Assembly: GCA_964635515.1 (NCBI GenBank)
Contig: CAZWNU010000002.1
Location: 1 to 64,000, forward strand
Direction: 5' to 3'
From: an uncultured Gammaproteobacteria bacterium
GTDB taxonomy: Bacteria > Patescibacteriota > Patescibacteriia > Patescibacteriales > JAGXOH01
DNA: 64,000 nt
Shown here: positions 1 to 55,505 of the stretch, one piece after another
How the letters are laid out: the number at the start of each line of letters is the position of its first letter
How positions within the stretch are numbered: position 1 is the first letter of the stretch
Made by a program: the position numbers and the translations under genes
The notes under the pieces: generated by a model
Databases searched by the model: none
Told to the model about the DNA's origin: nothing
What the model saw: only the letters and a program-made list of their open reading frames with translations

Positions 1-3000
1 TCCCGGATTTTCGATCTAGGGGAATCAGGAAGTATCAACCTGGGCTTGGATTATGATATTCCTCCCAACACTTCCATAGCAGTTTATCTTAGAACCGGTA
101 ATTCCTCCAGTCCTGGTTCCGGTTGGGAGAGCTGGACAAAACTTCCCACTCAAGAGGAAATTGCGGTCCCAGAAGAGTTAAATAATAATCGGTATGCACA
201 ATACCGCTTGGTTTTGGGAACCGATGAATTAGGAGTTACGCCTTCTGTAGATAAAGTGGAAATGATAATTTTTGGTGGCTCCTTAGTATCTTCGCCTTAT
301 GACACCACAGTGACCGATAACAAAATGACAGGAATAGAATGGATTGAGGATATTCCGGAGGATGCTTCTGTAGAGATGAGCGTTAGAACCTCAGACTCCG
401 ATTCCTTCTTACTTGATAGTAACCAAATCAATAGCGGATGGCACTCAGTGGCTATATCCGAGCCAGGAGAAAGTATATCCAACGCTCATTGTTCCAAGCA
501 TTCTGTGTCCGACGGTTATAGGGTTATCTGTAGCGAAAGCGCTTTGCCGTCTGACCTGAGAGCGGAACGTCCTGAAAATAAATACCTGCAGTATAGACTT
601 TCTTTGTCTGCCAACCCCTTTGATCTAGGAGACCTTCCCACTATCTATGAGACCGGTTTGGAATACGAGGCCATGTATCCCTTTGTAGACTCTGTCAGTC
701 CGGATCGATTCAATAATACAGAGGAAGTGAATATTACCATAGAAGGTTCGAGTTTCCAGGAAAAAGACGGTGAGATTCCTGAGGTAGCTTTAATTAATGA
801 GATAGATGGCAATGAAGTGGAAATCTGGGCGGATACAGTAATTTACCAAGGTTATAATGAATTAGCCGCCACTTTTGAAGATGTTACCCTTTACGCCGGT
901 TCTTGGGATGTAGTGGTGAAGAACCCTAATCAGGGCAGAGGTTCTTTAGAGGAGGGGCTGACTCTGGTTAACAGCGGAATTTATACAACTGAACCCTATG
1001 ACCTTGGAGGAGGCTCGGAATTTGGAAGTATTAATTTCGGTCTTCATGAGCCGGATGGGACAAGTATTACCATTGAAGCTCGTTCCAGTAATAATGAAGA
1101 GGACCTAGTGGACCCTCATGATCAAGGTTGGGAAGATGGAGAGTGTGAGGTGGAAAATGGTACACCCTTTGAAGAGGCGAACTGTATTGATACTGGTCAT
1201 CAATATGTTCAGTTTAGATTCAATTTTGAATCTGAACTGGCTGAGAATCAGCCCTATGTCACCTCTTTGGATGTAGAGATACTTGCTTCTCTGGCTTCAA
1301 TCATATCATCGCCCTATGATACCGTTTATGAAAAAAACGCTATTACCGGATTTAGATGGACAGAGAAAGAATTGGATGTTCCCAATCAAAGACTAGAGGT
1401 TTATGCCAGGGCTTGGTCTTTTGAAGATAGCGAGTTTATGGTAATAGATGAATACATAGAAGACGATTGGTATTTGGTCTCTGAAACTCATCACGGTGGT
1501 AATCCACAAGGATGTGAGGTGGTAAGCACAAGCGGGTCGGAGAGAGATGTAGAATGCAGTGTTGAAGATGTGCCGGAGGAACTGCGTAATATTGACGAGG
1601 ATCAAGTGATTCAATACAAAATAAATTTGGTAACACCGATAGAAGAAGAGATTGATGATCCGGAATATTACGATCAAGATGAACATTCTCCCCGATTTTC
1701 TAATTTCGAGGTTTTGTATACTCATAATCAACCTCCAGAGTTTGATGACGATGATTTGACAGCTGAGCAGAAAGACATAGAATTCTCCCCGGAAGTTTAT
1801 CAAGGAGATGTTGAGGTCGAGATATCAGTCAGAAATGATAACTATCCCCTGGATGATCCAGATGGCACTTCTTCGCCTTTGGCTGTCCTGATCGAGTATT
1901 CCTTGGATGATGGTGAAACCTGGTCTTCTCCATCTCCATCTCATCTTCAAGCCACTTCTAGTGACGGTGAAATACTAGCTAACTCCGAAGACGAGCTCAG
2001 AATTTTAGCCTATGATACCATTTTTACCGATTATACCATCTATTGGAGAGCCAGAGACGAGATACCCGGAGTTTACTCTACCAACACCAGAATCAGGATG
2101 GTCTTGGATGATCAGGAGCCGGTTCGGAATATCGCAACCGCCACCTCTGCTAGGTTTACCTTGGATACCATAGCTCCGGTTTGGGGAGATGACCCGATTA
2201 ACCTAGAAAATCTAGAAGAAAGGTCAGATGAAAGATATGATGCAGATGTGGTTATTAACCCAGGCGCAGAATCCTTCGTTGATGGTCCTTATAAGGTGGA
2301 GGAATCCAGAATTGGTTATAACATGCTTGACCTGGATGACGGGGTTTGGGGGGATTACAGCTCCTCTACACCAACAACTCTCCAAACCAGGCCGGATATA
2401 GTTTATGCTCAACTAAGAGATAATTGGAATAATCAGAGTGTGATAGTGGGTGCCAGTTCTAATCGCAATATTGCCGGAGAGGCCAGAATTGTGGATCTGG
2501 ACGAGTATATTTATACCAGTTGTCATGATTACGGTGACTGCGAGCCGGACAATATGCACAATGTTATTTTGGATATTCTTACCCTTAATTTTAGCGGTTA
2601 TGCTTCTTCCAGTCAGGGTTGGGTCAGCTTTGAGTCAGAGGAGACTCCACCGGATGACTCTTTCAGAGACAATTGTTTGTATGAATGTAACTCCACTTCC
2701 ACTCCCGCCTGTACCGCTTGTTATAATCCGGAAGATAATAATGTCTATGGCTGGGCGCAATTGGTGTCCAGCGGTGACTGGTTGGAGCTAAACGGTGCCG
2801 AGATTGGTGATGTGTCTAATGTTAGGATAGGAGCCATGGAAGGCTCTACACAGTTCAGGGGCAGTGCTCATTCAGATGATTTGGGTGAGGTTATTTTCAA
2901 CTGCGTGGATGATGGGGATATCGATTGCGCTTCTAATGATTATCATGTCAGATTAGTTGATCACTTTCTACCAGAAGCTTATGACCTAAAAGCTCCTAAT

Positions 3001-3783
3001 CAGAGCACTTCCACTCGAACCTCTGATGACGGCTCTTTGTGTCATCCTGACACCAGTGTACGGGATATAACCCTAGAGTGGGCAGTGCGGGATGAAAGTG
3101 ATGACTCCTATATCAGAGCTTTTGAGGTTAGGATAGCCACTACCAGTAATGTAGATAACTATTTTGCCACAGCCAGCGACACCAGGCGGCTATGGGATGA
3201 GGATACCGCCAGCTTTTCCTTTAATTGGGAGGATAGTATTGACTACAAACAATCATATTATTGGTGGGTAAGGGTTTATGACACTTTTGGCTTTAACTCC
3301 GGTTGGGTGCAATTCGATCATGACGAGGGAGAGGGTCATGAATTGACCAATAACCGAGAAGAAAATTTCTATGAAAATGCAATCGACCCCTATCTCACCT
3401 TTACCACCTACAAACATGAATTCCCCAACCCCTATATTTACTGGGAACCTCATTATGGTGATGATTATCCCACCCAAGAGCAGTACACTTTCTTGAGCGC
3501 CACCTCCTCCCATATTTATGCTGATGAAGACGGTAGTAGAGCCACACCCGTCACTTTTGCCACTTCCAGTTATGAGAGTCTTACTTGGCGGGCCGGGGTC
3601 AATCCTGAAAGGGTCAACTTCTTGGGAGCTACCAGCACTCCCACCACCTCAGCCAGATTTCTCTACAGCACCTCTACCATAGAGCTTGAAATAGAGGATC
3701 TGAGTGGATATACCTGCGCCACCTCTACTGTCTTTGATGTTGATGTTATGCCTTTGTGGGAGGAAGTAAAAACCAGTGATTAG
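1..3783 (+). CDS. Giant acidic secreted/surface protein, 5'-truncated by the window edge. It has repeated beta-sandwich-like modules plus IPT/TIG-like and FN3-like segments, and is a candidate pilus-associated adhesin.
   Basis: Frame 1 is open from nt 1, with no stop before the TTG at 46 used by the ORF track, so the gene begins upstream of the window. Four ~130-150 aa modules end in NRYAQYRLVL / NKYLQYRLSL / HQYVQFRFNF / QVIQYKINLV; three of them start with (S/E)PYD, and the first is cut off by the window edge. Its stop (3781-3783) lies inside the start region of the first pilin-like gene. Confidence 0.8.
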   Translation, partial: SRIFDLGESGSINLGLDYDIPPNTSIAVYLRTGNSSSPGSGWESWTKLPTQEEIAVPEELNNNRYAQYRLVLGTDELGVTPSVDKVEMIIFGGSLVSSPYDTTVTDNKMTGIEWIEDIPEDASVEMSVRTSDSDSFLLDSNQINSGWHSVAISEPGESISNAHCSKHSVSDGYRVICSESALPSDLRAERPENKYLQYRLSLSANPFDLGDLPTIYETGLEYEAMYPFVDSVSPDRFNNTEEVNITIEGSSFQEKDGEIPEVALINEIDGNEVEIWADTVIYQGYNELAATFEDVTLYAGSWDVVVKNPNQGRGSLEEGLTLVNSGIYTTEPYDLGGGSEFGSINFGLHEPDGTSITIEARSSNNEEDLVDPHDQGWEDGECEVENGTPFEEANCIDTGHQYVQFRFNFESELAENQPYVTSLDVEILASLASIISSPYDTVYEKNAITGFRWTEKELDVPNQRLEVYARAWSFEDSEFMVIDEYIEDDWYLVSETHHGGNPQGCEVVSTSGSERDVECSVEDVPEELRNIDEDQVIQYKINLVTPIEEEIDDPEYYDQDEHSPRFSNFEVLYTHNQPPEFDDDDLTAEQKDIEFSPEVYQGDVEVEISVRNDNYPLDDPDGTSSPLAVLIEYSLDDGETWSSPSPSHLQATSSDGEILANSEDELRILAYDTIFTDYTIYWRARDEIPGVYSTNTRIRMVLDDQEPVRNIATATSARFTLDTIAPVWGDDPINLENLEERSDERYDADVVINPGAESFVDGPYKVEESRIGYNMLDLDDGVWGDYSSSTPTTLQTRPDIVYAQLRDNWNNQSVIVGASSNRNIAGEARIVDLDEYIYTSCHDYGDCEPDNMHNVILDILTLNFSGYASSSQGWVSFESEETPPDDSFRDNCLYECNSTSTPACTACYNPEDNNVYGWAQLVSSGDWLELNGAEIGDVSNVRIGAMEGSTQFRGSAHSDDLGEVIFNCVDDGDIDCASNDYHVRLVDHFLPEAYDLKAPNQSTSTRTSDDGSLCHPDTSVRDITLEWAVRDESDDSYIRAFEVRIATTSNVDNYFATASDTRRLWDEDTASFSFNWEDSIDYKQSYYWWVRVYDTFGFNSGWVQFDHDEGEGHELTNNREENFYENAIDPYLTFTTYKHEFPNPYIYWEPHYGDDYPTQEQYTFLSATSSHIYADEDGSRATPVTFATSSYESLTWRAGVNPERVNFLGATSTPTTSARFLYSTSTIELEIEDLSGYTCATSTVFDVDVMPLWEEVKTSD

Positions 3784-3790
3784 TTTATTT

Positions 3791-4357
3791 ATGAAAAAAC
3801 AGACAAATAACAATAATTCCGGCTTCTCTTTGATAGAAGTTATAGTAGCCTTGGGCTTGATCGCTTTGATAGCCGGCCTTATAATAGCCAACTACAGAGA
3901 GGGAGAGAGGACAAACACAATTCATTTCTCTGCCAAGGATCTGGCTACTACTTTAAGACAAGCTCAAAACAATAGCCTGGGAGCGGTCAGATATGATGGG
4001 CGCACCCCTGCAGGCGGCTGGGGCGTTCATATCGACCTGGAGACAGCTACCACTTCCTACAAGCTATTTGCCAACCTGGACTATGATGAGGAGGATATAG
4101 ATACTTATGGTTATGAAGCTGGCCAGGCCTTACCCGAGCATGGTGGAAAGACTATGGACACCAAAAGAGGAACTTTTATAGCCACCACCTCCCTGGGTAG
4201 TATGGTCAGTATCAGTTTTCTTCCTCCGCATCCGGAAACACTTATCTTTGACGGCACTGCCACATCTAGCGAAGTTGAGATTCTGCTTGAAAATGAAGCC
4301 GGGGAGACCAGGAAGGTGGAAGTTAATTCTCTAGGTCTAATAAAATCAGGACCTTAA
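3791..4357 (+). CDS. Type IV pilin-like (pseudopilin) protein, in the GspH/FimT-like position
   Basis: It has a prepilin class III signal 'KKQTNNNNSG|FSLIEVIVALGLIALIAGLII' with Glu at +5. The ATG at 3791 is preferred over the GTG at 3776. Confidence 0.85.
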   Translation: MKKQTNNNNSGFSLIEVIVALGLIALIAGLIIANYREGERTNTIHFSAKDLATTLRQAQNNSLGAVRYDGRTPAGGWGVHIDLETATTSYKLFANLDYDEEDIDTYGYEAGQALPEHGGKTMDTKRGTFIATTSLGSMVSISFLPPHPETLIFDGTATSSEVEILLENEAGETRKVEVNSLGLIKSGP

Positions 4358-4372
4358 TTTTGCATATAAACT

Positions 4373-4891
4373 ATGATTAAGAAAAATAACAATCAAGGCT
4401 TCACTGTTCTGGAGATCGGGGTTTCCTTGCTCATAATCTCTGTGGGAATGTTAGGGGTTTTGTCTTTAATTGTTCAGAATATCAGAGCCGATGACGTGGA
4501 CAGAAATAGGATTATTGCCAGCCAGTTGGCCCAAGAGGGATTGGAGCTCGTTAGAAATCAAAGAGACTATAATTGGTTGTCCGAGGATAACTGGATCAGA
4601 GATGTAGCTGAAGAGGATAGTTATACCATTGATTATCAATTAGATACTTATTCGGGTGTGGATGATATATCTGATCCGGAGACCCTTTTGTATCTTAATG
4701 ATGATGGTTTTTATGTTCATGATGACGAGGATAACCAACCTAGCCGCTTTCGGAGGATTATAAAGGTGGAGGTGGTGGATGAAGAAGCGGCTTCTACCAC
4801 AGTCAGCTCTTTGGTTCAATGGGAGGACCGCGGTTCTACTTATCAATATGTAGCTGAGACCGATTTATATAATTGGCGCCCCAGAGATTAG
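4373..4891 (+). CDS. Type IV pilin-like protein, in the PilV/GspI-like position
   Basis: It has the motif 'KKNNNQG|FTVLEIGVSLLIISVGMLGVLSL' with Glu+5, and is small (172 aa). Confidence 0.85.
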   Translation: MIKKNNNQGFTVLEIGVSLLIISVGMLGVLSLIVQNIRADDVDRNRIIASQLAQEGLELVRNQRDYNWLSEDNWIRDVAEEDSYTIDYQLDTYSGVDDISDPETLLYLNDDGFYVHDDEDNQPSRFRRIIKVEVVDEEAASTTVSSLVQWEDRGSTYQYVAETDLYNWRPRD

Positions 4892-4926
4892 TTTTTATGA
4901 CTCACCTCCAGTTTTAAATTAAGAAT

Positions 4927-5499
4927 ATGTCGAAAATAGTGTTACAATCAAGAATTAAGAATCAAGGAGGCGTGACTCTCATAGAGTTGCTGGTGGCTTT
5001 GGGCTTGTTTGCTGTGATCACTATAACTGCTACCCAGATTTTTAATTTGGTGGTCCAGGCCCAAAGGAGCACCGTAGCCTCCCAAAATGCCCAAGAGGAC
5101 CTGCGCTATATAATGGAGGTGGTGACCAAAGAAATTCGCATGGCTCAAGTTGACCATGATGGTGTCTGTGTTTCCCCCAATCGGGTTTACGAACCAGTTT
5201 TTCATGACGATCATGATAATTCTCTGAGCTTCTTAAATTCTAAAGGTCAATGTGTTAGTTATAGGATGGATGACGGTAACTTCGAGATCAGTCGAGTAGA
5301 ACCTTCGGCTGAGCCCGACTGGCATAGCGTTACGAGCGAGGAGACAGAACTGGAAGAGCTCAACTTCAGACAAACCGGAACAGTGCCGGCGGAGCAACCT
5401 TTAATTACTATGAGGTTTAAGGTAAATGTCGGCGGGGACACGGTTGATGTCCACACCCTGAACATTCAAACCTCCATATCAGCTAGGCATTATGAATAA
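4927..5499 (+). CDS. Type IV pilin-like protein, in the PilW/GspJ-like position
   Basis: It has the motif 'IKNQGG|VTLIELLVALGLFAVITI' with Glu+5. The +1 residue would be Val rather than Phe/Met. Confidence 0.8.
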   Translation: MSKIVLQSRIKNQGGVTLIELLVALGLFAVITITATQIFNLVVQAQRSTVASQNAQEDLRYIMEVVTKEIRMAQVDHDGVCVSPNRVYEPVFHDDHDNSLSFLNSKGQCVSYRMDDGNFEISRVEPSAEPDWHSVTSEETELEELNFRQTGTVPAEQPLITMRFKVNVGGDTVDVHTLNIQTSISARHYE

Positions 5500-5941
5500 T
5501 ATTTTTCAAAGATTAAATTCTTCTTGGCAAGACCGGTCAGGGGCGGCACTGTATATGTCCATGATCATACTCTCCGGAATTCTTTTGATTGCTATGATCC
5601 TGGCTGATGTGGTGTTGACCGGGATTCAGATGGGCGGTACTCAGGCTCGTTCCACCAAAGCCTATTTTGCTGCTGAGGCCGGAATGGAAAAACTACTGTG
5701 GGAATATCGCCAAAACGACTATGAAGGAGAAATGAGCTATCATGGGCCTTATCCTGAAGTAGAAACAAACATCTTTACAAAAACTCTCGGTAACGCAGCT
5801 AACTATTCTGTCAGTTATGAGGTTAATCAGGATGATGAGGACTGGGTGGTTAAACGCTTTGTTTCCGTAGGGGGTTATAGGGATGTCCGTAGGTCGGTCA
5901 GGGTTACTATCCGTTACCCCGAGTATTATCTTGATTTTTAA
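5492..5941 (+). CDS. PilX/GspK-like minor pilin candidate with no Glu+5
   Basis: It has a PilX_N-like N-terminus 'RSGAALYMSMIILSGILLIAMILADVV'. It overlaps the preceding gene by 8 nt (ATGA-type coupling) and is the fourth member of the pilin run. Confidence 0.6.
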   Translation: MNNIFQRLNSSWQDRSGAALYMSMIILSGILLIAMILADVVLTGIQMGGTQARSTKAYFAAEAGMEKLLWEYRQNDYEGEMSYHGPYPEVETNIFTKTLGNAANYSVSYEVNQDDEDWVVKRFVSVGGYRDVRRSVRVTIRYPEYYLDF

Positions 5942-11269: not shown

Positions 11270-11887
11270 TTATTGCCACTTAATAAGATACTCATTGTAG
11301 TCTGCTCCTTCAAAAACACAGGCTGTCTCTTCCACAGTTACTTTTTTGTCTTTTAGGACAAATTCCATCATTCCCTTGAAAAACCCGGCATGATAGATAC
11401 AAATTAGGGGGTGGGTTTTGTAACCCTTCTCCCTTAATATTATTTCCTGCTTTTTTTTATCAAATTTTACCGCCTCCAAAGATCCAAAATCGAGGTGTTT
11501 ATCCCAATAATTTCCTACATTTTTAAACATGGTTTCGACTGATACCAAATATTTCAAAAGAATTTTCATAATAAAGGAGTTTCTGGTGGACCTTCTTCCC
11601 ATGTCGAAGATATCTTCATCTGTCCAGCCAAAAATTTCTTTGGCTACCACCGGTACCAAAGAGGCCTTCCCTTCGTTTACCCAATCCAGGGAGTTTATTA
11701 TCTCCTCAAAGTCTATTTCCACTCCCAGTTCTTTCATCTTTTTTTCCACTTTTTCCACCCCTTTTTCTCCCTCTTTTTCTTTTATATAGTTCTTATGGGA
11801 AACAAATATATCTCCTTTTACATTTCCTTGAAAATTTTTCAGCCTCTGGGCTGTTTCTTGTAGAGATTCTTTTTCCATATTGTCCAT
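11270..11887 (-). CDS. Hypothetical 205-aa cytoplasmic protein with a V4R-like C-terminal ligand-binding motif; paralog of 27625..28245
   Basis: The C-terminus 'HPLICIYHAGFFKGMMEFVLKDKKVTVEETACVFEGADYNEYLIKW' resembles the V4R pattern (C..x..G...G....V.V.E..C..G). It shares blocks with the 27625 gene (KEGE-G, DW, F-W-D-F-MGR, YW-K, FDK-K). Confidence 0.55.
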   Translation of the reverse strand: MDNMEKESLQETAQRLKNFQGNVKGDIFVSHKNYIKEKEGEKGVEKVEKKMKELGVEIDFEEIINSLDWVNEGKASLVPVVAKEIFGWTDEDIFDMGRRSTRNSFIMKILLKYLVSVETMFKNVGNYWDKHLDFGSLEAVKFDKKKQEIILREKGYKTHPLICIYHAGFFKGMMEFVLKDKKVTVEETACVFEGADYNEYLIKWQ

Positions 11888-27422: not shown

Positions 27423-27624
27423 TTTTTGATTCTGCGGCTTGCAATTAAGAGCTTTGAAATATCCAAGACCCCGATCAATCGTCCGGAGGTGGTGTTTCTT
27501 GTTTTGGGGAAGAGGGGGTGAGAGTAAAATTCTAAATGGACCGCAATCAAATCAAGACGTCACCACCTAAATTCCCAATAACTTCAAGAAAAGTTGTTGT
27601 TTAATAAAAAACTTTTTGGTGCTT

Positions 27625-28245
27625 ATGAGCAAGGGTGTCAAAGAACAATACCTGGAAGAATTAAAGGAGTTAAAAAAGATGAAGGGAGAGGAAAGAGGAG
27701 CGGATCTGGTTTTTTTGACCGAATACCTTAAAAAAAAGGAAGGAGAAGAAGGTTATAGAAGTCTTTTGAGGTTTTTAAAAAAAGAACTTGATTTTGAGTT
27801 GCCCGACCCGGAAAAGCTCAATAATTTTGATTGGATCCCGGCAGCCGCTCCCCATGTTTTTATGGTTGCCATGGTGAGATTTTTTGACTGGGATGATAAG
27901 GAGGTTTTTGAGATGGGCAGAAATTCTTTTACCATTTCCAGGTCCTTGAGGATCCTTATTAATTATACTTTCATTACTAAATATAATATTAAAAAGGCTT
28001 TGAGCTACTGGAATAAGTTCTATACTTGGGGAAGCGCGGAGCTTTTGTCTTTTGATAAAAGGAAGAAAGAGGGATTTCTTTGCCTAAGAGATTTCCCCAG
28101 TCACCCAGTGGTCTTTAAGTATTTGGAAGGATTGTTCTCCAGATTTTTAGAGATCAGCTCCGGTAGCGCCAAGGCCAAGGTGAGAGAGGTTGATAAATCA
28201 CCGGACCGGGGGAAAGATGACCATGTTTTTAAATTGACTTGGTGA
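27625..28245 (+). CDS. Hypothetical ~206-aa protein, diverged paralog of 11270..11887 (V4R-like, Cys-less C-terminus)
   Basis: It shares ordered blocks with the other copy: 'YLKKKEGEEG', 'FDWIP', 'FFDWDDKEVFEMGRNS', 'YWNKF', 'FDKRKKEG', 'HP', and a terminal 'KLTW'. The ATG at 27625 is preferred to the TTG at 27616. Confidence 0.55.
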   Translation: MSKGVKEQYLEELKELKKMKGEERGADLVFLTEYLKKKEGEEGYRSLLRFLKKELDFELPDPEKLNNFDWIPAAAPHVFMVAMVRFFDWDDKEVFEMGRNSFTISRSLRILINYTFITKYNIKKALSYWNKFYTWGSAELLSFDKRKKEGFLCLRDFPSHPVVFKYLEGLFSRFLEISSGSAKAKVREVDKSPDRGKDDHVFKLTW

Positions 28246-53955: not shown

Positions 53956-54726
53956 TTAATTGCAGGTCCAGCCAACGATATTATCTTCAACACATGATTC
54001 ATCTTCATTGAATTGATTAGTGTTGGAGAGGTCGGGTTTTAGATCGCATTCAAGCCTGTTAGTATTTTCACAACTATCATATGTGCCAAGTGTCAAGTCA
54101 TACAAACAACAACCTGTAGGTATGTTCACACACGTATCTCCTACGGGTTCGTAATCGGGTCCGTAGAAGGTTCCTGGTCCTCCGGCATACTCATCGCTTT
54201 CGCAGATTTCTCTGGACCTAAATTCCGCTGTGTCGTCAAATTGACAACAACCAAAATCTGAATCAAGGCTAATCTCTCCCAGATCAACCTCATCGATCCC
54301 GAGCTCGGGAAAGGCCACTAGTTCCGGGTTTATCTGATAAAGGAGCATGTAGGAGGTGAGCATTAGGACCAGGCCGGTCAAGGCTCCTCCTATCCATTGT
54401 TTGGCCGTCTCCACCCGATTGACATTACCTCCGGCCGTCAGCCAGATCACACCTCCTATCATCAGGACCACGGCGGCCAAAATTCCCACAATCCCCAGGC
54501 TATAGTTATATATAGCTCTAATATATTTACCCAGGGTATCTCCACTGAAGGTCACGTCTTCTCCTCTCTCAAACTCTGAACTTCCGGGTATGCCGGTCTC
54601 CAATCTGTATTCTACATTGCTTTGCGCGTGAACCGGGTCTGGGAGGAGGATAAAAGAAAATGCAAGAGACAACGCCAACAACATTAACAGTTTCGGGAAT
54701 AAATTTTTAATTTTTTGTCTTGACAT
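53956..54726 (-). CDS. Exported TrbC/VirB2-like 'T4SS-pilin' domain protein with an acidic 10-Cys C-terminal domain (tandem copy 2)
   Basis: It has a signal peptide 'LLALSLAFSFILLPDPVHA|QS' and a two-TM pilin-like core 'IRAIYNYSLGIVGILAAVVLMIGGVIWLTAGGNVNRVETAKQWIGGALTGLVLMLTSYMLLYQI'. A 107-aa Cys-rich tail follows, containing 'GCCQFDDT' and 'GCCLYDLT'. Confidence 0.75.
   Translation of the reverse strand: MSRQKIKNLFPKLLMLLALSLAFSFILLPDPVHAQSNVEYRLETGIPGSSEFERGEDVTFSGDTLGKYIRAIYNYSLGIVGILAAVVLMIGGVIWLTAGGNVNRVETAKQWIGGALTGLVLMLTSYMLLYQINPELVAFPELGIDEVDLGEISLDSDFGCCQFDDTAEFRSREICESDEYAGGPGTFYGPDYEPVGDTCVNIPTGCCLYDLTLGTYDSCENTNRLECDLKPDLSNTNQFNEDESCVEDNIVGWTCN
54281..54681. repeat. 401-bp perfect direct repeat, copy A (period 779 bp)
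   Basis: It is base-for-base identical to 55060-55460 by manual comparison. The ORF track also shows identical antisense 60-aa ORFs at 54397-54579 and 55176-55358. Confidence 0.95.
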
Positions 54727-54740
54727 AAGTTATCTTATTA

Positions 54741-55505
54741 TTATGGCTCTTCCCCACATCTGTGTACCACCCCTGACACTTGGTGAAAGTCGTCAGAGCA
54801 ACATTCTTCTTCGCAATAAGGTCCTTCCCAATGAGTTGTTTCATAGCAGACTGTTTGATCAGGGAGACATCCGTTTTCTGTTTCTTCACCACCTTCACCG
54901 GTAACATCTGCTAGGCAACAACAAGTTTCAAAATTTTCGTTCTCTTTTGGTCCACATCTGTGGGAACTCGCTTCGACATAATCAGTATCATAAAATTGGC
55001 AGTTTAGACCAAGAATCCAGGTGCATTCAGGTTCGCCACCAAATTGGGGCATCCCTGCTAGATCAACCTCATCGATCCCGAGCTCGGGAAAGGCCACTAG
55101 TTCCGGGTTTATCTGATAAAGGAGCATGTAGGAGGTGAGCATTAGGACCAGGCCGGTCAAGGCTCCTCCTATCCATTGTTTGGCCGTCTCCACCCGATTG
55201 ACATTACCTCCGGCCGTCAGCCAGATCACACCTCCTATCATCAGGACCACGGCGGCCAAAATTCCCACAATCCCCAGGCTATAGTTATATATAGCTCTAA
55301 TATATTTACCCAGGGTATCTCCACTGAAGGTCACGTCTTCTCCTCTCTCAAACTCTGAACTTCCGGGTATGCCGGTCTCCAATCTGTATTCTACATTGCT
55401 TTGCGCGTGAACCGGGTCTGGGAGGAGGATAAAAGAAAATGCAAGAGACAACGCCAACAATATTAATAGCTTCGGGAATGGGTTTTTGGTTTTTTTCTTT
55501 ATCAT
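54741..55505 (-). CDS. Exported TrbC/VirB2-like 'T4SS-pilin' domain protein with an acidic 12-Cys C-terminal domain (tandem copy 1)
   Basis: Its N-terminal ~149 aa are near-identical to copy 2. Its 105-aa tail, containing 'NCQFYDTDY', 'ETCCCLADVT' and 'EEECCSDD', is different. The ATG at 55505 lies 2 nt after the porA stop. Confidence 0.75.
   Translation of the reverse strand: MIKKKTKNPFPKLLILLALSLAFSFILLPDPVHAQSNVEYRLETGIPGSSEFERGEDVTFSGDTLGKYIRAIYNYSLGIVGILAAVVLMIGGVIWLTAGGNVNRVETAKQWIGGALTGLVLMLTSYMLLYQINPELVAFPELGIDEVDLAGMPQFGGEPECTWILGLNCQFYDTDYVEASSHRCGPKENENFETCCCLADVTGEGGEETENGCLPDQTVCYETTHWEGPYCEEECCSDDFHQVSGVVHRCGEEP
55060..55460. repeat. 401-bp perfect direct repeat, copy B
   Basis: See copy A. 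The flanks diverge abruptly. The 45 nt toward the start codons have 13 mismatches (about 71% identity), and the C-terminal-domain side cannot be aligned at the DNA level. Confidence 0.95.

Follow-up and report, generated by a model that had tools for sequence, protein, structure and literature searches.

The question raised by this locus is whether a giant secreted protein belongs to a pilus. A 64-kb stretch of DNA from an uncultured, ultra-small Patescibacterium (the window, meaning the whole stretch that was analysed) opens inside a very large open reading frame (ORF), which runs in frame 1 from base 1 to a TAG stop at 3781-3783 and is followed by four small genes for pilin-like proteins. 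A first-pass annotation had linked the two, proposing that the giant is presented by this set of minor pilins. The analysis reported here strongly supports the reality of that link by comparative genomics: the C-terminal ~450 amino acids (aa) of the giant represent a protein family, called X below, which is encoded directly upstream of the same pilin set across the Patescibacteria.

The giant protein and the X family

The window holds only the 3' part of the giant gene. The remainder is present in L001, a 61-kb metagenome contig that overlaps and is colinear with the window (1 mismatch in 14,891 nucleotides, nt), and a look upstream for the start of the gene, which had been advised earlier, found it whole there (L001:2353-9411). 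The full-length protein has 2,352 aa, of which 1,260 fall inside the window, so that the earlier description of an acidic and large protein held, while its figure of more than 1,245 aa gives way to these exact lengths. The isoelectric point (pI) is 4.05, and Asp and Glu together make up 19.5% of the residues. The N-terminus is of the Sec type (MLF…ALIFFVLFLCFFLGSVESVSA/TE, the stroke marking the predicted cleavage site) with no GFxxxE, and the only hydrophobic segment is N-terminal (residues 11-40) and followed by VSA/T. An independent anchor had been named as a sign that would speak against a pilus link; hydropathy and Pfam searches of the giant found no sortase motif (LPXTG or [LIV]Px[TSA]G), no S-layer (SLH) or other anchor domain and no C-terminal membrane anchor. 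The Pfam matches are confined to the lectin-like LamG_3 (residues 339-486, 2e-24, upstream of the window) and a weak Ig domain, and neither the giant nor X has any NCBIfam match. Six beta-rich repeat units of ~200-230 aa, each built of two modules (YESTF…YxQYRxxLGTDELGxTP…), were delimited in L001 from its direct repeats (families D1-D6).

A database search with the window's part of the giant returned few relatives. One of them, P0001 (31% identity), aligns through the giant's last residue and has an equal neighbourhood of giant, four pilins, ligA, gatCA and secD. P0005, P0002 and P0006 have only the N-terminal repeat modules in common with the giant and are encoded away from pilins. Conservation in the giant is restricted to its last ~450 aa, and in related loci the gene just upstream of pilin 1 very often matches the giant's C-terminal 460 aa only, with a usual length of 413-491 aa. 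Because this C-terminal module is common to free-standing ~450-aa proteins beside minor-pilin sets, the giant is, on sequence comparison, an N-terminally expanded member of the pilus-linked X family, and its size is, as judged from the same alignments, the result of a lineage-specific expansion that added ~1,900 aa. A smaller observation on the added part is the string YSLDDGETW at window ~1897-1923 (giant residues ~1725-1733), which has the counterparts YSSDGGSSW in P0001 and YSIDGGTNW in P0005; we take it to fit the Asp-box/BNR pattern SxDxGxTW, and no Pfam match backs that assignment.

Related loci were gathered by scanning GTDB species genomes with pilin 2, which gave 145 relatives, with 80 loci kept; the loci listed all come from metagenome-assembled genomes of Patescibacteria type, some with wrong record titles. 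Among the 66 Patescibacteria loci with upstream sequence, 44 distinct ones have an X gene, detected with a hidden Markov model (HMM) of the module, immediately before the four pilin genes, and none was found at any other position in the ~1.1 Mb of loci gathered via pilin 2. An independent database search with the X module returned 44 homologues of 417-542 aa, which are named only 'hypothetical' or 'PKD domain-containing'. A reverse test gave the same adjacency, as three X homologues chosen regardless of pilins (P0170, P0188 and P0158) are each followed by four pilin-sized genes. The module is conserved in about 90 proteins with N-terminal additions of 0 to ~1,900 aa, LamG included, that form a size series of ~450 aa, 794-820 aa with LamG (P0158, L018) and 1,145-2,352 aa. 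No description of the family was found in the literature.

The X module is composed of an N-terminal beta domain with GxAWSxxxGWISFN-type repeats, a fn3-like domain and a PKD-like domain, with conserved residues spread across all three; the Pfam matches in its relatives are Ig_Rha78A_N (fn3-like) and PKD. An AlphaFold2 model of the window's X module is all-beta (predicted local distance difference test, pLDDT, 80.7; predicted template modelling score, pTM, 0.70). Foldseek searches with this model found only fn3/Ig tandems, the top matches reaching TM 0.25 at best, and only generic fn3 and tail-fibre matches among viral structures. The model has no beta-propeller, and PF05567 (PilY1/PilC) was not detected in the giant even at E up to 1. 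X proteins are acidic (median pI 4.07) and begin with a Sec-like signal, and 22 of 24 short members have an AXA-like site immediately ahead of the conserved domain. A prepilin-type class III signal was seen in none of the 36 locus X proteins and not in the giant.

The extreme C-terminus of X carries a motif, [LMIV]PxWxE[VI]K, which was found within the last 16 aa of 35 of the 36 locus X proteins and of all 44 database homologues (79/80 in total). PxWxE at the C-terminus occurs in 38 of 1,425 locus ORFs of at least 100 aa; 37 of these are X proteins, and the 38th, in L084, lies directly upstream of pilin 1. The L084 protein (L084:2-2758, partial, 918 aa) is negative with the X HMM and ends in …PSPEWKEVPPQ, so the tail motif outlasts recognisable similarity elsewhere in the protein. 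That the motif is merely a Shine-Dalgarno sequence for pilin 1 was considered and rejected as the main cause, as it persists at gaps of -61 to +415 nt to the next gene. Since it is kept whatever the gap, a constraint on the protein itself is indicated, beyond any ribosome-binding function. The tail codons of the window (TGG GAG GAA) might double as a ribosome-binding site; those for W-E-E at window 3759-3765 read TGGGAGGAA, with GGAGG ending 12 nt before GTG 3776.

The four minor-pilin genes and their surroundings

The four small genes that follow the giant were recovered as first described, three with class III prepilin signals and the fourth without Glu at position 5 (Glu5), and the spacing reported for them was also confirmed: 7 nt separate the giant's stop from the pilin 1 ATG at 3791, and the pilin genes succeed one another at 15, 35 and -8 nt, the last figure being the overlap of genes 3 and 4. 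A six-frame regular-expression scan of the window for G[hydrophobic][ST]xxE with a hydrophobic run found pilins 1-3 only, and the cluster is therefore not a chance pattern.

Profile affinities in gene order are GspH/ComGD, PilV/GspI, GspJ/ComGF and PilX_N, all under curated cut-offs. The best NCBIfam match of pilin 1 is GspH (6e-9, 36.1 bits against a cut-off of 80). Pilin 2 matches PilV (5e-11, 43.2 bits against 52.2) and GspI (6e-4, 20.3 bits against 44.35), pilin 3 matches GspJ (1e-6, 28.4 bits against 64.85) and the fourth protein matches PilX_N of Pfam (E=0.09, 13.2 bits against 25.5); N_methyl matches came from single-sequence scans of the pilin genes. The same affinities recur among relatives, with GspH matched by 51/63 and ComGD by 42/63 members of the pilin-1 family, PilV by 64/71 and GspI by 13/71 of the pilin-2 family, and PRK10557 by 50/70, GspJ by 36/70 and ComGF by 32/70 of the pilin-3 family. 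Glu5 is invariant in the relatives of pilin 1 (63/63) and pilin 3 (70/70), as is E14 in the pilin-2 family, and the order pil1-pil2-pil3-pil4 is preserved in nearly all of the 80 loci. The Val at +1 of pilin 3, at first thought unusual, is in fact common in its family (F 29/70, V 18/70, T 6/70). Sequence searches of the PDB with the four pilins, single and profile, gave only N-terminal-helix matches to full-length major pilins, with a marginal exception for ComZ in the fourth family, and such searches cannot tell H, I, J and K apart. An H-I-J-K-type set is thus supported by order, signals and profile affinity. The four genes are outside the curated GspH/I/J/K families, with every match short of the cut-off. 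Of the first-pass claim of an H-I-J-K-like set, the order, the Glu5 pattern, the family-level profiles and the predicted pilin fold of the fourth protein stand, and formal membership in GspH/I/J/K does not.

The fourth protein, of 149 aa, has neither the large alpha-domain insertion of GspK nor an extra module. An exhaustive HMMER search yielded 342 representatives of its family, where a simpler homologue search gave only the protein itself. PilX_N is the sole Pfam family matched (17 of 48 relatives, best 6e-7), and the family profile touches ComZ (E=0.021). Position 5 is Met here and L, M, I, F or V in all 48 locus relatives and all 128 representatives, and Glu5 is found in none of either group. 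The AlphaFold2 model (pLDDT 87.8), with a helix at 16-74 (59 residues) and a 4-strand sheet, predicts a minimal pilin fold in a test that covered the fourth protein alone. Its best Foldseek neighbours are Streptococcus sanguinis PilA (7o5y, prob 0.97) and ComZ (prob 0.87), neither with a significant E-value.

Translational coupling of the giant to the pilins, which had also been proposed, was not borne out. Tight spacing is found genome-wide, with a median gap of ~25 nt on the plus strand here and ligA beginning 7 nt after the fourth pilin gene, and the 7-nt gap between giant and pilin is unremarkable because short gaps are the norm in this genome; there is no Shine-Dalgarno sequence near ATG 3791. 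No terminator-like site was found on the plus strand between 3000 and 6190. For pilin 1 the gene callers prefer a start at GTG 3776, giving an 8-nt overlap with the stop of the giant gene. The start of the fourth gene at 5492 (callers: 5555) is backed by orthologues with the same 8-nt overlap and a conserved Gly-1.

In related loci the cassette often belongs to a complete pilus cluster (PilB-PilT-PilC-pilin-PilD). Within ±10 kb of it in the 80 loci, PilD was found in 34, PilB in 26, PilC in 28 and a major-pilin-like gene in 34. The cluster in L040 reads PilB-PilC-two pilins-FemAB-YbeY-X-pil1-4, that in L050 two pilins-PilD-X-pil1-4-LigA, and that in L092 T2SSE-PilC-two pilins-Wzy_C/TPR-PilD-X-pil1-4-LigA, with L061 (PilB-PilT-PilC-two pilins-Wzy_C/TPR-PilD-pil1-4) an example without X. 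The cassette of X and four pilins persists and its flanks vary, with PilD, YbeY or FemAB upstream and ligA or large proteins downstream. As a separate observation, in L040:11524-18803, L036:12205-17958 and L091:9594-13347 the four-pilin set is followed by Pfam-negative, Sec-signal-bearing proteins of 1,744, 1,917 and >2,540 aa, so large surface proteins would be present on the other side of the cassette too. L040 also holds a 682-aa protein weakly like the N-terminal region of the giant.

A proposed pilus-tip partner and its alternatives

The minor pilins GspHIJK and FimU-PilVWX prime assembly and form the filament tip, with the Glu5-less member on top. By analogy, the region would be the distal end of the type IVa-pilus gene module of this Patescibacterium, and its four-pilin set would prime filament assembly and come to lie at the tip of the pilus, capped by the fourth protein, which lacks Glu5. 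X would be the dedicated non-pilin partner of this set in much of the Patescibacteria: exported by Sec, bound via its C-terminal module or tail by the minor-pilin complex as this assembles, and carried outward on the pilus tip. The variable N-terminal part (LamG, repeats) would then serve as an adhesin, probably glycan-binding, for attachment to a host or surface. Tip display is drawn from the analogy, and we infer signal-peptide cleavage, the binding of X to the pilins and the adhesin role. The reading as a whole, the end of a type IVa-pilus module with a core minor-pilin set and an X-family tip partner or adhesin, is favoured with a confidence slightly above the even mark.

The closest parallel is with FimU-PilV-PilW-PilX and PilY1 of Pseudomonas aeruginosa and Myxococcus xanthus, and PilC1/2 of Neisseria. 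As here, there are four core minor pilins in the order H-I-J-K, the last without Glu5, and an adjacent large Sec-secreted non-pilin with a conserved C-terminal part and a variable, adhesive N-terminal part, a likeness of analogy and not of homology. A further likeness is that genomes related to that of the window have PilB, PilT, PilC and PilD clustered with these genes. X differs from PilY1/PilC in having a beta-repeat domain, fn3 and PKD instead of a beta-propeller or PF05567, and from PilY1 in that its gene is upstream of the H gene and not downstream of the K gene, next to a fourth pilin of only 149 aa. PilC/PilY1 is stated to be absent in monoderms, and HIJK complexes are described as capping filaments and presenting effectors (PMC9934059). 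What would be new is a PilY1-like role, assigned by analogy, played by an unrelated and unnamed family; if true, X would be a non-homologous, monoderm-type counterpart of PilY1.

Other systems share parts of this arrangement. GspH-GspI-GspJ-GspK of the type II secretion system (T2SS) have the same gene order, GspK also lacks Glu5, and genes 1-3 here match GspH, GspI (after PilV) and GspJ, although with scores far under the equivalog cut-offs (36 vs 80, 20 vs 44 and 28 vs 65 bits) and without the GspK alpha-domain. The monoderm tip complex PilA-PilB-PilC of S. sanguinis (PMC9934059) includes the small Glu5-less PilA, structurally nearest to the fourth protein, and presents a concanavalin-A-like lectin module, to which LamG in the giant may be compared. 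Its adhesive modules, however, are grafted on the pilins PilB and PilC, which have class III signals, whereas the LamG protein here is a separate Sec-type non-pilin, and the S. sanguinis complex has three pilins to the four found here. Within the same superphylum, the PilX1/PilX2 system of Nanosynbacter lyticus TM7x (PMC12206443) combines the same type IVa-like machinery with an adhesin candidate tied to a minor-pilin locus, and the PilX-type proteins, like the fourth-position protein here, are without a PilD signal. In Saccharibacteria the proposed adhesins are pilins of PilX type to which accessory domains are fused (PMC12206443). In TM7x a jelly roll or 7-bladed propeller is fused to the PilX-like C-terminus, whereas the locus described here has a minimal PilX-like protein and encodes its candidate adhesin, of a different family, in a separate upstream gene. 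ComZ of Thermus thermophilus (PDB 6qvi) is tip-associated with a pilin-like fold, and the profile and model of the fourth family touch its pilin part. These matches are weak (E=0.021 and 0.89), and ComZ has a large beta-solenoid insert and binds DNA, whereas X is acidic and not pilin-like. The Verru_Chthon pilin-like cassette is described as accompanying a large protein A. Its components A-D (TIGR02596, TIGR02598, TIGR02599) give sub-cut-off matches between the pilin-3 family and protein C (36/70) and between the pilin-1 family and protein D (23/63), but the giant and X have no counterpart match in NCBIfam.

Several findings weigh against a tip-partner reading. X is missing in about one-third of the loci with the same pilin set, including most of those labelled Saccharibacteria, and is therefore not obligatory for the set; a longer fourth gene where X is absent was looked for across the loci, with no clear pattern. 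In most lineages X is uniformly ~450 aa long, as would also be expected of a structural or machinery component. In line with the first-pass annotation, a tblastn search of the window with queries from related loci found no PilB, PilC, PilD or major pilins, nor was PilT found. The pilin family matches, in addition to being sub-cut-off, cover only the N-terminal ~50-75 residues and are driven by them, and cleavage of the giant and X signal peptides was assessed by eye and hydropathy only. Finally, ligA-gatCA travels with the cassette in many loci too, so that conserved gene order by itself is weak evidence within the clade. Given LigA, X-module distances covary with those of pilin 1 (partial r 0.50, p=0.0005) and the fourth protein (partial r 0.45, p=0.025), beyond what LigA or GatA distances explain, and not significantly with those of pilins 2 and 3; these values come from 17-18 genomes and Mantel-type permutations, which are lenient, and the support they give to an X-pilin link is suggestive only.

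The synteny of ligA-gatC-gatA-secD, together with the short gaps genome-wide and the occurrence, remote from pilins, of proteins that have just the giant's N-terminal repeats (L007, L010, L008), would also be expected if the giant were an independent secreted or surface adhesin whose place beside the pilins is merely inherited in a compact region. That explanation is rather improbable, as the cassette of X and four pilins stays together while its flanks change, every X-family gene seen adjoins a pilin set, including the three chosen regardless of pilins, and the tail motif is confined to the gene that precedes pilin 1. X could instead be a fixed part of the pilus machinery or envelope, with an alignment or wall-spanning role and possibly held by an uncleaved helix, in which case the giant would be a surface fibre rooted at the pilus base. 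The usual position of X between PilD and the minor pilins, its near-constant size, the spread of conserved residues over all three domains and an N-terminal hydrophobic segment able to anchor it if uncleaved would all suit such a role. It is nevertheless unlikely in view of the AXA-like sites that precede the conserved domain in nearly all short members, the third of loci that possess these pilins and PilD yet do without X, the covariation with pilin 1 and the fourth pilin, and the lineage-specific growth to as much as 2,352 aa by added lectin and repeat modules, which look like parts of adhesins and not of machinery.

The best profiles of the pilins include GspH/I/J and ComGD/E/F, the fourth family touches ComZ and the window has no PilT or major pilin, and the four proteins might accordingly be read as a short pseudopilus of T2SS or Com type, with X or the giant as its exported substrate or as a ComZ-like DNA-uptake receptor. 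This is improbable. In related loci the cassette has genes for PilT-like ATPases and two for major pilins as neighbours, which argue for a pilus and not a secretion pseudopilus. Patescibacteria are generally described as having no outer membrane, and a Sec-exported protein would then need no T2SS; the strong acidity of the X module argues against DNA binding. The remaining alternative is that the giant is the target of a neighbouring diversity-generating retroelement (DGR), so that variability and not the pilus link is the main point. In L001 a reverse transcriptase (RT) gene does precede the start of the giant by 1.3 kb, and relatives of the giant's N-terminal repeats adjoin bAvd+RT cassettes in L007 and L010, but no pair of template and variable repeats (TR/VR) was found between the 2.35 kb flanking the RT and the giant gene or the window, and the variable region in L007 sits in another gene, the upstream Fib_succ_major, which makes this a very improbable account.

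A more specific form of the tip-partner reading is put forward tentatively, at less than an even chance: the X module would be an unrecognised, Patescibacteria-specific non-pilin tip effector, its near-universal PxWxE[VI]K tail docking on the H-like and K-like pilins and its N-terminus acting as a hot spot for the grafting of lectin and repeat modules, up to giant size, that would determine host specificity during episymbiosis. In the few Patescibacteria in culture, attachment to the host and motility require type IV pili; the molecule in contact with the host has been identified just for Saccharibacteria, and there tentatively (the PilX2 propeller). X would thus be a concrete candidate for a host-recognition determinant across many Patescibacterial lineages, with the X gene and its tail motif as a simple genomic marker.

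Coordinates and smaller observations

Table 1. Giant gene, its modules and the four pilin genes in the window (a stroke marks the predicted prepilin cleavage site).
Feature	Position	Strand	Basis
Giant, 3' 3.78 kb (codons 1093-2352 and the TAG stop; full gene 2,352 codons); acidic, predicted secreted, multidomain	1..3783	+	ORF open to window edge
Repeat unit 5 of giant	1..675 (unit starts 27 nt upstream of window; boundaries approximate)	+	D1-D6 repeats; alignments to P0001, P0005
Diverged repeat unit 6 of giant	982..1700 (boundaries approximate)	+	BLASTP, window residues ~328-565 vs P0001/P0005 repeat units
X module, conserved C-terminal ~450 aa	2428..3780	+	Giant residues 1902-2350 match the X-module HMM
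Extreme C-terminal tail MPLWEEVKTSD	3748..3780	+	Family hallmark [LMIV]PxWxE[VI]K
Minor pilin 1, GspH/FimU/ComGD-like	3791..4357	+	Class III signal MKKQTNNNNSG/FSLIE; N_methyl 5.7e-7
Minor pilin 2, PilV/GspI-like	4373..4891	+	Class III signal NQG/FTVLE; conserved ASQLAQEGLELVRN helix motif
Minor pilin 3, GspJ/PilW/ComGF-like	4927..5499	+	Class III signal QGG/VTLIE; Val at +1
Fourth pilin-like protein, K position	5492..5941	+	RSG/AALYMSMIILSG; RSG/AALYM; STKAYFAAEAG; no Glu5

The 7-nt spacing of ligA given above counts from ATG 5949, where the conserved LigA N-terminus (MNSEFRHKKKQAKKRIEKL) begins; the gene callers' start, ATG 5883, would overlap the fourth pilin gene by 59 nt. Upstream of the giant, the RT gene in L001 occupies 28-1086 on the plus strand (RVT_1 1e-18), with an IGNYSSQ motif that we take to be DGR-like, and a degenerate RT fragment lies at 1661-2125 on the minus strand; both pieces are 4.5-5.6 kb upstream of window base 1. 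The proteins of L007 and L010 that share just the N-terminal repeats with the giant lie right downstream of the bAvd+RT cassettes, a recurrent adjacency, and the VR/TR pair in L007 (2137-2316 and 2884-3063) targets the Fib_succ_major gene.

Elsewhere in the window, a V4R-domain protein (1.4e-6, below cut-off) is encoded at 11270-11887 on the minus strand, and a Pfam-negative protein at 27616-28245 on the plus strand appears by eye to be its paralogue, with the same length and a similar N-terminal half. Two tandem paralogues at 53956-54726 and 54741-55505, both on the minus strand, are nearly identical over their N-terminal ~150 aa, which comprise a signal peptide and a T4SS_pilin match (PF18895, 1.7e-7), and have divergent, Cys-rich C-termini; by this family match the genome also encodes a candidate pair of conjugation-type (type IV secretion) pilins.

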